DNA of 64,000 nucleotides from Syntrophaceae bacterium UBA6078 (lineage in GTDB: Bacteria; Desulfobacterota; Syntrophia; Syntrophales; UBA2210), in NCBI GenBank assembly GCA_002428735.1, contig DIXO01000044.1:2114-66113 (forward strand), read 5' to 3'. Position 1 is the first letter of the stretch. The number at the start of each line of letters is the position of its first letter. Of the stretch, positions 20,440 through 29,002 are shown one piece after another. The notes beneath the pieces were generated by a model. It saw only the letters and a program-made list of their open reading frames with translations. It ran no database searches and was not told where the DNA came from. The translations under genes were made by a program, and so were the position numbers.

Positions 20440-21854
20440 GACTCTCCGGCTATCCGTTTTATCCCGTCCCGTATCAAGGGAAAGTCCTCTTGTGCAATCG
20501 TTCGCAGGTCAAAAAGGACCCTGTCCTCGTAAATTCTTGCAATGATGGGAATTTCCAGCGTGCGCAACTTTCTCTCCAGCCTGCTCGCCGAGAGAGTCCG
20601 CGACTCCACCGCGATAACGGCGGTGGGGATCTCCTGCGTGGGAAGCGAACCGCCTCCGGCCATGGACGTGGCCTTCATCATGGAAAATTCCAGACCTTTC
20701 AGTGATAACTGTTTCAGGAGGGCGATCAGCTCATGAGCCCGTTTTTCGACCTCGGCCACCGGTTCGGTCAGCGCCCGGAGTACCGGTATGTCGGAAATCG
20801 CCCGACCGAGATCCAGATAATGGATCATGGTCGCCTCAAGGGCCGCCAAGGTTAATTTGTCTATCCGGAGGGCGCGATTGAGGGGGTTCTTCTTTATCTT
20901 CGCAAGGATCGCCCCCTTCCCCAGGATGACCCCGGCCTGCGGCCCTCCGAGAAGCTTGTCCCCGCTGAAGGTGACCACGTCCACCCCCGTCTTGACAACC
21001 TCCTGAACCGTCGGCTCCTTCTCGAAGCCATACATATCAAGCGGAACGAAGCAGCCGCTCCCCAGATCGTTCATCACCGGGACTCCCCTGTTGTTCCCCA
21101 GCGTCACCAGTTCTTCCAGACCAACCTCATTGGTGAATCCGAGCACCTTGAAGTTGCTCGTGTGCACCTTCAGAATCACTCCGGTAGTGCTTTCCACGGC
21201 ATTTTCGTAATCCGACAGATGGGTTCGGTTCGTTGTTCCCACCTCCCGGAGAACGGCGCCGCTTTTTCCCATCACCTCGGGGATGCGAAATTCCCCCCCG
21301 ATCTCAATCAATTCGCCCCGCGACACAATGGCCTCCTTCCCCTCGGACAGGGTGTTGAGGGCAAGGAGAACGGCGGCGGCGTTATTATTGACAATCAGGG
21401 CATCTTCGGCCCCCGATACGGAGCAGAGGAGTTCTCTCACGTGATCGTAGCGCACCCCCCGCTTCCCCGTGTCGAGATCGAATTCGAGATTTGAATATCC
21501 GGCGCTGACATCGATTATCCGTGCGAGGGCCTCAGCGCAGAGCGGGGCGCGCCCCAGGTTTGTGTGCAGGATTATGCCGGTCGCATTGACCACCCGGCGG
21601 AGGCTGGAGGTATACAGATCGAGAAGCCGTTTCCGTACCGCCTGCGCGGCCTCGGCTGCCGGCACAGGAAGAGGGTTTTTTCCTCCCTTTTTTGGATGCA
21701 GAATTTGCAGCCGCATCTCGTCGACCACTTGACGGCATTTCGCCACCACAATGTCCCGGGAGATCCCTTCACAGGAGCCGTCCTTTTCGAGAATGTGGAG
21801 CATATCGTCGATCTTCGGGAGATCTTTCAGCAGTTCTCTAGTTGCGTCATTCAT
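20436..21854 (-). CDS. selA: L-seryl-tRNA(Sec) selenium transferase
   Basis: The N-terminus MNDATRELLKDLPKIDDML aligns with the SelA N-terminal pattern. The PLP-lysine motif FSGDKLLGGPQAG is present. A GGAGG-type SD precedes the ATG at 21854. Confidence 0.9.
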   Translation of the reverse strand: MNDATRELLKDLPKIDDMLHILEKDGSCEGISRDIVVAKCRQVVDEMRLQILHPKKGGKNPLPVPAAEAAQAVRKRLLDLYTSSLRRVVNATGIILHTNLGRAPLCAEALARIIDVSAGYSNLEFDLDTGKRGVRYDHVRELLCSVSGAEDALIVNNNAAAVLLALNTLSEGKEAIVSRGELIEIGGEFRIPEVMGKSGAVLREVGTTNRTHLSDYENAVESTTGVILKVHTSNFKVLGFTNEVGLEELVTLGNNRGVPVMNDLGSGCFVPLDMYGFEKEPTVQEVVKTGVDVVTFSGDKLLGGPQAGVILGKGAILAKIKKNPLNRALRIDKLTLAALEATMIHYLDLGRAISDIPVLRALTEPVAEVEKRAHELIALLKQLSLKGLEFSMMKATSMAGGGSLPTQEIPTAVIAVESRTLSASRLERKLRTLEIPIIARIYEDRVLFDLRTIAQEDFPLIRDGIKRIAGES

Positions 21855-27602: not shown

Positions 27603-27714
27603 GCCGCCCGATCTCATTCCTTTTTCTGTTTGACAATTCCGGAACGATGCCTATCGTATAATCGTGTATTGACGATAAGCACTATCTGTGGTAGGAAGCC
27701 GCGCGGACATGAGG

Positions 27715-27743
27715 GAAAAAGAACGGAACACGCGTTCTTTTCT
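27715..27743 (+). terminator. Intrinsic terminator-like hairpin
   Basis: AAAAAGAACG-GAACACG-CGTTCTTTTCT: a 6-bp stem (longer if the A/U flanks pair) followed by a T-run. It lies about 115 nt after the DUF401-like gene and 40 nt before arsR. Confidence 0.5.
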
Positions 27744-27784: not shown

Positions 27785-28150
27785 ATGGTGACGGATGGTT
27801 GCGCGGGAGGACCTCACGCTGTATATATCGAAACGCTCGACACGACGGACCTTGAAACGTGCAAAAAGATTCTGGCACGGCTTGCAAAGGGACTTTCCCA
27901 CCCTGCCAGGATTGAAATTATCCGAATGCTGTGCAATAAACCCCCCGACCAGGAGTTCATCTGCTCGGATATCGTCAGGGCCCTTCCCCTGGCGCAGGCG
28001 AGTGTCTCTCAGCATTTGAAGATACTCAGGGAAACGGGCTGGATTTACGGTGAAATCGACGGCCCCCGGGTCGTATGCCGTCTTGTGGAAAACATTATGG
28101 CATTTTATCAACAGCTCATGAGAAAAGTAACGCATGAGCAACACACATAA
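27785..28150 (+). CDS. ArsR/SmtB family metalloregulator
   Basis: The winged-HTH pattern LSHPARIEIIRML...SDIVRALPLAQASVSQHLKILRETGW is present. Confidence 0.8.
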   Translation: MVTDGCAGGPHAVYIETLDTTDLETCKKILARLAKGLSHPARIEIIRMLCNKPPDQEFICSDIVRALPLAQASVSQHLKILRETGWIYGEIDGPRVVCRLVENIMAFYQQLMRKVTHEQHT

Positions 28151-28164
28151 AAAGGAGAAAAAGC

Positions 28165-28485
28165 ATGTTTGCAGTTTCGGAAAAGGCGCAGGAGATGATC
28201 AAGAAGGTTCTCGAATCGAGAGACGACAACCTCCCGGTTCGGTTGATATATGCCGGAGGCGGGTGATCGGGCCCCTCACTGGCAATGTCTCTGGATGAGG
28301 CAAAAGAAGGCGACAAGACGTTTCAGGAAGATGGCATCACCTTTGTCATCGAGGAATCGCTGTTTGAGCAGGCGAAACCGATCAACATAGATTTTATTGA
28401 TTCGGCCAGTGGGTCCGGTTTTTCCATTACCTCGAACCTGTCCCTCGGCGCCGCCTGCGGCACCTGCGGCGGAGGATGCGGTTGA
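28165..28485 (+). CDS. IscA/HesB-like selenoprotein (in-frame UGA at 28264..28266 read as Sec)
   Basis: AAAGGAG SD (28151..28157) precedes the ATG at 28165. The frame is open except for one TGA. The joined product ...VRLIYAGGG-U-SGPSLAMSLDE...GFSITSNL...CGTCGGGCG aligns with IscA (...[14 protein letters not shown]...), with U at the conserved Cys. The track shows only the 3' piece (28285..28485). Confidence 0.75.
28274..28300 (+). promoter_or_regulatory. Candidate SECIS stem-loop
   Basis: CCUCA-CUGG [CAAUGUCU] CUGG-A-UGAGG: 5 + 4 bp (two G-U pairs) with a bulged A, and an 8-nt loop containing GU. It starts 10 nt after the U of the UGA. Confidence 0.35.
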
Positions 28486-28492
28486 TTCAATC

Positions 28493-28816
28493 ATGGCTGA
28501 AGCGGGCCAATACTGCGTCATACTGACCACATGCCCGGACCGCGAAGAAGGGGAACGGCTTGCCCGTCTGCTCGTTGAGTCCAGGCTGGCGGCCTGTGTG
28601 CAGATAACGGGTGTCACCAGTTTTTACGAGTGGGACGGCGCCCTCAACAGGGACGACGAACAGTTGCTGTTGATCAAGGCGCCGTCTTCTTCGTACGGGG
28701 AGATTGAAACGGTCATTTCCCAAAATCACCGCTATGCTGTACCGGAGATAATCAGGATTCCGGTAACGGCCGGTAGTGAACAATACCTGCGGTGGATCGA
28801 CACCGTCACAAAGTAA
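28493..28816 (+). CDS. cutA: Divalent-cation tolerance protein CutA
   Basis: CVILTTCPDREEGERLARLLVESRLAACVQI...SFYEWDG...EQLLLIKA...YAVPEII is the classic CutA1 pattern. I used the ATG at 28493; the listed earlier start overlaps the hesB-like gene. Confidence 0.85.
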   Translation: MAEAGQYCVILTTCPDREEGERLARLLVESRLAACVQITGVTSFYEWDGALNRDDEQLLLIKAPSSSYGEIETVISQNHRYAVPEIIRIPVTAGSEQYLRWIDTVTK

Positions 28817-28846: not shown

Positions 28847-29002
28847 CTACCACGGCATGTACTGATGGAACAGACAAAGGCCCGCTACGGTGACCGCCAG
28901 GATGATGACGCCGGCATAGAATATTTTCAGGTAGGAATCCTCCCTGGCGGCGTATTCATCCCAGTCGGTTTTCTCAAGGTTATGTCTGAATTTGCTTAAC
29001 AT
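28847..29002 (-). CDS. Possible 51-aa single-pass membrane protein
   Basis: Below the track's size cutoff. Translation: MLSKFRHNLEKTDWDEYAAREDSYLKIFYAGVIILAVTVAGLCLFHQYMPW. Weak GAGG SD. No family recognised. Confidence 0.25.
   Translation of the reverse strand: MLSKFRHNLEKTDWDEYAAREDSYLKIFYAGVIILAVTVAGLCLFHQYMPW

Follow-up and report, generated by a model that had tools for sequence, protein, structure and literature searches.

The locus at positions 28165-28485 of the window (the whole 64,000-nt stretch of DNA that was analyzed, from contig DIXO01000044.1 of Syntrophaceae bacterium UBA6078) raises the question of whether two neighboring stretches of one frame, separated by a TGA codon, encode a single selenoprotein or are the remains of a broken gene. 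The sequence-only reading had taken the locus for an IscA/HesB-like A-type carrier with selenocysteine (Sec) in place of the first cluster-ligand Cys. According to the analysis reported here, 28165-28485 is very probably a single gene that encodes a HesB-like (IscA_HesB_Se) selenoprotein of 106 residues; the genome is of Syntrophales type and reads UGA as Sec.

The reading frame and its interruption

By direct reading and translation, the plus-strand frame at 28165..28485 runs from an ATG (28165-28167) to a terminal TGA (28483-28485) and comprises 106 codons and a stop; the sole in-frame stop inside it is the TGA at 28264-28266, codon 34. The ATG is preceded by the Shine-Dalgarno sequence AGGAG (28153..28157, plus strand) with a 7-nt spacer, a region that is conserved in the Cys-containing orthologs L090 and L093. 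The read-through product, with a length of 106 aa, is MFAVSEKAQEMIKKVLESRDDNLPVRLIYAGGG-U-SGPSLAMSLDEAKEGDK...GFSITSNLSLGAACGTCGGGCG; its predicted Sec34 is surrounded by ...IYAGGG-U-SGPSLAMSLDEAK, in the motif GG-U-S-G-P, and takes the place of the first cluster-ligand Cys. The sequence-only reading had described a 66-aa open reading frame at 28285..28485 as the only one listed in this frame, an ATG at 28165 with AAAGGAG 7 nt before it, an interruption by the TGA at 28264..28266 alone, and a joined length of 106 aa. The list of open reading frames and the translation agree with this description throughout, and the observation of a split gene at 28165-28485 is confirmed.

Family identity of the joined protein

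The joined protein scores 113 bits against the NCBIfam model NF038090 ('IscA_HesB_Se'; cutoff 85 bits), with residues 1-100 aligned to positions 1-101 of the 101 in the model, and the gene scores 105.9 bits in a six-frame search of the genome. Further, the two pieces match separate parts of the same model, the N-terminal 33 aa with 17 bits over positions 1-33 and the 66-aa piece with 66 bits over positions 41-101. Since the pieces alone score 17 and 66 bits and the joined protein scores 113 bits over its full length, the joining of the two frames goes beyond chance; the first of these matches also upholds the expectation that the N-terminal 33 codons resemble IscA/HesB N-termini. The Pfam model PF01521 (Fe-S_biosyn), suggested earlier as a check, is passed with 32.1 bits (gathering score 26.3). 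The other model suggested, TIGR01911 (HesB_rel_seleno), turned out to be the wrong one: the protein reaches 46 bits over positions 5-91 of 92, below the cutoff of 66.35, which places it outside that model's membership, and the fitting model is NF038090.

HMMER alignments match the protein end to end with the structures of Aquifex AQ_1857 (1NWB, E = 8e-13), HI1723 (2APN) and E. coli IscA (1S98/1R94). In particular, Sec is aligned with the Cys within 'GGCSG' of 1S98/1R94, 1NWB and 2APN, which is Cys35 of E. coli IscA, and the sequence-only reading had likewise placed U on the conserved Cys; C97-G-T-C100 of the product falls on the C-G-C motif of IscA. The residues around codon 34, GGG-U-SGP, conform to the first-ligand pattern of NF038090 (G-G-[UC]-x-G-P), and the three ligand positions of A-type carriers (Cys35, Cys99 and Cys101 in E. 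coli IscA) are all occupied, with variation, by Sec for Cys and by C-x2-C for C-x-C. The matches to NF038090 and PF01521 and the alignment to IscA Cys35 thus support the core reading, in which the predicted product is an IscA/HesB-type carrier with Sec at the first ligand Cys.

HesB-like selenoproteins are, as the sequence-only reading stated, an established family. A catalogue of 2006 counts 11 members, and Syntrophus aciditrophicus, Syntrophobacter, Desulfovibrio and Geobacter are among the genomes listed with one (Zhang et al. 2006, PMC1794560); the family's motif is given as UxGP in a review (PMC13188914), and the HesB-like selenoprotein of Methanococcus maripaludis was identified by 75Se labelling (PMC11097638).

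Selenocysteine decoding in the host genome

The host genome has a size of 3.0 Mb and is 99.5% complete. Profile searches of it return selB with 361 bits, a tRNA-Sec with anticodon UCA (75.6 bits) and selD with 383 bits; selD is itself a selenoprotein gene, with one in-frame TGA at GAG-U-ACK (G000:C1:810-1727, locus L017). The selenocysteine synthase gene selA lies within the window, on the minus strand at 20466..21827 (TIGR00474, 604 bits; converted to window coordinates from G000:C11:22579-23940). With selA, selB, selD and tRNA-Sec each above its cutoff, the genome contains the set by which Sec decoding is recognized, and, judged by this gene content, the organism is able to decode UGA as Sec. 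Short hairpins with a GG loop also follow the Sec sites of selD and TsoX in this genome, 21-26 nt after the UGA; the one of selD is also placed at about 16-28 nt.

A covarying hairpin downstream of the UGA codon

A SECIS-type hairpin, UGUCUC-UGGAU-GAGGCA, is found on the plus strand at 28286..28302, beginning 20 nt after the UGA (+23..+39), with six base pairs that include one U-G pair and with GG in its apical loop. The family consensus is (U)GGCUC-UGGAY-GAGCC(A), a stem of 5-6 bp located 20 nt past the UGA. Across 62 sequences, 96.8% of the cells are paired, as compared with 18-51% when the partners are slid, and three of the five core pairs show double-sided changes; shuffles never reach the observed values. 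RNAalifold, unaided, returns the same stem at 28286-28302.

An enlarged locus set, containing 100 unique Sec-type genes and 20 unique Cys-type genes, separates the two types sharply. All five core pairs are formed in 98 of the 100 Sec-type genes; in contrast, they are formed in 1 of the 20 Cys-type genes. Compensatory changes occur at four of the five core pairs among the Sec-type genes, where C-G is swapped to U-A in six sequences (through the synonymous change of GAG to GAA), U-A to C-G in three, G-C to U-G or U-A in 15 (the window among them) and G-C to U-A in one. All 100 Sec-type genes have CUG as the Leu codon at the stem/loop junction (positions 28-30), versus 11 of 20 Cys-type genes, and the codon before it ends in U in 96 of 100 versus 6 of 20. 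Overall, the synonymous sites over the hairpin are frozen in Sec-type genes.

The hairpin at 28286-28302 folds alone with -6.5 kcal/mol. Single-sequence folding of the region after the UGA is no better than that of shuffles (minimum free energy z = +0.45 and +1.14) and, being unremarkable, leaves the SECIS call to the comparative data; a search of the whole window at Rfam gathering thresholds gave no match, to the hairpin or elsewhere. On the comparative data, 28286-28302 qualifies as a bacterial SECIS-type element, to which SelB would be predicted to bind.

A bulged stem-loop at 28274..28300 had been noted after the UGA in the sequence-only reading. It can be drawn in the window sequence, where it borrows the 3′ arm of the 28286-28302 hairpin. 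On 62 orthologs, its pairing is 73.7% versus 73.2% in column shuffles, 49 of 500 of which reach the observed value, and 60 of the 62 sequences do not form its outer pair; this stem was rejected and replaced by 28286-28302. The expectation that a SECIS-like structure is conserved in orthologs was therefore right for the latter hairpin and wrong for the 28274-28300 stem.

A variant of the hairpin occurs in L112 (labelled Syntrophorhabdus) and in L115 and L116 (labelled only as deltaproteobacterial metagenome-assembled genomes), where the peptide A-L-D-G-P replaces A-L-D-E-P and the hairpin becomes GGCCC-UGGAY-GGGCC; the substitution of Glu by Gly accompanies a swap from U-A to C-G, and the stem is kept.

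Conservation of the UGA codon and of the terminal TGA

A six-frame search of 401 sampled genomes of the phylum yields NF038090 matches over the cutoff in 168 of them; among the 150 matches listed, about 124 contain exactly one in-frame TGA and about 26 contain none. The TGA occupies one column, GG-U-[SA]-G-P, in 29 of 30 fetched loci, the 30th having Cys, and in the enlarged set the 100 unique Sec-type genes and the 20 of Cys type have their Sec or Cys at that same column.

Among full-length database homologs, the closest two, P0002 (82% identity) and P0003 (68%), carry TGT at the Sec codon, one base from TGA, so that a pseudogene or a sequencing error needed checking. On that view, a Cys-type iscA would recently have acquired a nonsense mutation, or the TGA would be an error of the assembly, leaving a pseudogene or a gene from which only the 66-aa C-terminal piece is made, and gene callers everywhere do output a 64-66 aa open reading frame. 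However, the 64-66 aa database 'proteins', at 76-97% identity, are the same split gene. The same codon is TGA in four metagenome contigs (L097, L098, L099 and L101) and in all ten of the closest species-level genomes (L102-L111, labelled Syntrophales or Syntrophaceae), and the 33 codons before it differ from the window mostly by synonymous changes, with synonymous to non-synonymous counts of 8:3, 6:2 and 0:0. These synonymous differences imply that the two halves evolve as one protein; together with the retention of the TGA in the ten Syntrophales genomes, the purifying selection on the upstream codons indicates that the gene is no pseudogene; in the relatives, purifying selection acts on either side of the UGA. 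Moreover, TGA-bearing genes retain the hairpin, whereas it is broken in L090 (P0002), a Cys ortholog that has lost one pair through a change of GAG to GAA; it is intact in the other Cys ortholog, L093 (P0003). The complete Sec machinery of the genome also speaks against a nonsense mutation or error, as does the makeup of the 66-aa piece, which would have neither the first ligand nor the beta-strands at the N-terminal end of the fold. A broken or misassembled Cys-type gene is accordingly a very improbable account of the locus.

A further alternative accepts the Sec at codon 34 and treats the terminal TGA (28483-28485) as a second Sec codon, which would extend the protein to a C-x-U version of C-x-C with two selenocysteines. 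The window tail is C-x2-C-x3-C-G, with C97, C100 and C104; many family members have ...C-[GS]-C-stop as their terminus, where ...C-G-TGA stands in the window and several others, and TGA is commoner as a stop after 'C-x' tails than after 'C-x-C' tails. Against this, the tail of L107 is the same, CGTCGGGCG, yet its stop codon is not TGA, and L104-L106, L023-L025, L032 and L082 end in C-x followed by TAA or TAG. Protein-level conservation 3′ of the terminal TGA is absent, a reading of the sequence after it finds no hairpin like that at 28286-28302, and C97 and C100 already align with the C-G-C of IscA. Given the L107 tail and the many members ending in C-x-TAA or C-x-TAG, a second Sec at 28483-28485 was rejected and is hardly credible; the TGA excess after 'C-x' tails is best explained by mutation of TGY to TGA in the codon of a dispensable last Cys.

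Two further observations concern Sec-type and Cys-type genes. L090 and L093 resemble recent Sec-to-Cys conversions, and conversion with a remnant SECIS element has already been described for the HesB-like family (Zhang et al. 2006, PMC1794560). Tandem Sec-type and Cys-type copies, a few hundred bases apart, occur in L023-L026, L031, L060, L077 and L085; in these pairs the hairpin is kept by the Sec copy only, and the arrangement resembles the Sec/Cys isogene pairs of methanogens.

Gene neighborhood and putative regulation

The selenoprotein gene lies between two genes on the plus strand. Upstream, an ArsR/SmtB-family regulator gene at 27785..28150 (NF033788, 54.7 bits with a cutoff of 55; PF01022, 36.7 bits) terminates with TAA at 28148-28150, 14 nt before the selenoprotein ATG; downstream, cutA (CutA1 family; PF03091, 117.7 bits) at 28493..28816 starts 7 nt after the selenoprotein stop. 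These gaps of 14 and 7 nt suggest co-transcription, and the selenoprotein gene is probably transcribed together with arsR and cutA. Assignment of the regulator as TsoR or BigR was rejected, with 29-30 bits versus cutoffs of 115 and 155.

The sequence-only reading had pointed to this neighborhood and had suggested looking for Cys-containing orthologs that share it. An arsR ortholog is located 5′ of the Sec gene in L097-L099, L102-L105, L109 and L111, and cutA is located downstream also in L090-L092 and L097; within the near Syntrophales subclade, arsR precedes the gene in 6 of 10 genomes and cutA follows it in 8 of 10. In a tblastn search over 70 loci across the phylum, in contrast, arsR is near the gene in one and cutA in none. 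The flanking genes are thus real in the window and in the near subclade, and were rejected as a trait of the family. As for Cys orthologs, P0002/L090 has TGT and the order DUF401-iscA-cutA, so that the cutA half of the expected synteny is present and arsR is absent.

A trio of genes lies directly upstream in L097, L098 and 7 of the 10 subclade genomes: a lyase-like gene (491 bits to the cysteine-desulfurase family TIGR01977; 416 bits, short of the cutoff, to the SclA selenocysteine-lyase model), YedF (TIGR03527, 222 bits) and a DUF3343/Se_S_carrier gene. The combination of a Sec-lyase-like protein, YedF and DUF3343 was proposed as a selenium-trafficking cluster by Lin et al. 2015 (PMC5322559), a paper in which HesB and CutA each have 0 occurrences. 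The window's genome has no DUF3343 match, and its best lyase match, at 30% identity, is on another contig; in the window, L103 and L104, DUF401 is followed directly by arsR. Among 129 loci, YedF/DUF3343 is found nearby outside the subclade only in L125.

Upstream of arsR, on the plus strand at 27657..27677, lies a 21-nt block, TATAATCGT-nn-ATTGACGATA, which does not vary among the ten aligned loci, whether or not they have the SclA trio. It contains the inverted repeat ATCGT-N6-ACGAT and a TTGACG hexamer resembling a -35 element; a plausible role for it, as a candidate, is that of promoter/operator of arsR-iscA-cutA, which would make these genes a separate unit.

Between this block and the arsR ATG at 27785, positions 27717-27741 hold a perfect inverted repeat of 9 bp (AAAAGAACG / CGTTCTTTT) with a T-run after it, and relatives have a small hairpin plus T-run at the corresponding place. 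The element could act in the leader, as a terminator or attenuator, or could terminate the DUF401 gene that lies upstream. On the other side of the unit, a 51-aa open reading frame with one hydrophobic helix and no family match lies on the minus strand at 28847-29002, convergent on cutA, and minus-strand frames of 51-87 aa occupy the same place in L090-L092 and L097.

Proposed function

By the established bacterial mechanism, a complex of SelB, GTP and Sec-tRNA(Sec) would bind the 28286-28302 hairpin on the translating mRNA and deliver Sec to the UGA. The product would then dimerize, as its homology to A-type carriers suggests, and would hold or transfer an Fe-S cluster through Sec34, C97 and C100, possibly with C104, by homology to Cys35, Cys99 and Cys101 of IscA. 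We infer, accordingly with its homologs, an A-type carrier that ligates an Fe-S cluster via Sec34, C97 and C100. A whole-genome PF01521 search was insensitive, returning nothing, not even this gene, and was replaced by TIGR00049 and by tblastn with 24 family proteins; these searches found no other A-type carrier homolog in the 99.5%-complete genome. As the sole detectable homolog of its kind there, the protein is favored to have a housekeeping carrier role.

The subclade's neighborhood invites a different function for the same gene model, in which the protein of this Syntrophales lineage is a relay or buffer for selenium (or for sulfur or a metalloid), and no generic Fe-S carrier; it would accept selenium from the SclA-like lyase, YedF and DUF3343, under the control of a Cys-rich ArsR-type sensor and with CutA as partner. 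The position of the trio directly 5′ in 7 of 10 subclade genomes and in two metagenome contigs, the frequent presence of arsR and cutA there, and the link that Lin et al. 2015 (PMC5322559) draw between the trio and selenium trafficking are consistent with such a role, as is the Cys ortholog L090, which is without arsR. However, the window's genome has kept the Sec gene without the trio, the linkage nearly vanishes outside the subclade, the promoter-like block conserved ahead of arsR points to a transcription unit of its own, and the protein retains the three ligand positions of A-type carriers. Further, Fe-S assembly operons normally pair a cysteine desulfurase with an A-type carrier, so that a desulfurase-like gene adjoining such a carrier is also their usual layout. 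A relay or buffer function is thus unlikely, though clearly less so than a broken gene or a second Sec. In its fullest form, which is speculative to a similar degree, the HesB-like selenoprotein and CutA of the subclade would form an ArsR-controlled unit coupled to the SclA-like/YedF/DUF3343 cluster, the Sec-containing IscA homolog would be an acceptor or buffer of reactive selenium or a builder of Se clusters, and the window's genome would have kept the acceptor unit and lost the mobilizing module. The preferred function remains that of an Fe-S carrier; the lineage-specific linkage to Sec-lyase/YedF/DUF3343, ArsR and CutA provides a modest functional hint for the HesB-like family.

Comparison with known systems and consequences for annotation

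The window gene shares with the NF038090 subfamily its length of ~105 aa, U-x-G-P at the first ligand, a C-terminal tail rich in Gly, Ser and Cys, and the downstream hairpin, and with the HesB-like family a host of the same kind, a Sec-rich anaerobic deltaproteobacterium. The window's subclade differs from the subfamily in having one hairpin pair as U-G instead of G-C and the peptide M-S-L-D-E-A, not M-A-L-D-E-P, over the hairpin, and the window tail is C-x2-C-x3-C-G rather than ...C-x-C; none of these differences is essential. TIGR01911, whose members include the M. maripaludis protein, shares the fold family of the window protein and likewise has Sec at the first ligand position. That model stops before the Cys-rich tail, which, together with the score of 46 bits versus 66.35, places the window gene in a sister subfamily. 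IscA, SufA and ErpA (PF01521; 1S98, 1R94, 1NWB, 2APN) are homologous over the whole length with three ligand positions aligned, whereas the window protein has Sec as first ligand, C-x-x-C for C-x-C, and no isc or suf operon context. In contrast to the arrangement in close relatives, where the cluster of Lin et al. 2015 (PMC5322559) lies directly 5′ of arsR-iscA(Sec)-cutA, the cluster is absent from the window.

Because the family was catalogued in 2006 and the protein passes a dedicated NCBI model, the locus represents a correct detection of a known gene type: it is an ordinary representative of that selenoprotein family, of a kind that callers of open reading frames miss. Its main value is a correction of annotation, as calling genes with UGA as a stop splits this one into open reading frames of 33 and 66 aa, and the identical miscall is present in dozens of database entries named 'hypothetical protein'. 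In this genome, the miscall hides the only detectable A-type carrier homolog, so that an automated metabolic reconstruction would wrongly infer its absence. The hairpin GGCUC-UGGAY-GAGCC, ~20 nt after the UGA, covarying and decayed in Cys paralogs, is a clean family-specific SECIS signature, which could serve to flag such genes automatically.

Some database homologs listed as full-length have another residue at the Sec column of the alignment, namely W in P0005, P0014, P0048 and P0060 and R in P0049; these are probably TGA codons read by another code, or near variants. Finally, a sub-branch made up of L114, L138, P0006, P0013, P0015 and P0018 contains 'GG-C-C-SGP', with two neighboring Cys versus the single U or C elsewhere, and one of its members, P0015, carries the JGI name 'HesB-like selenoprotein'.
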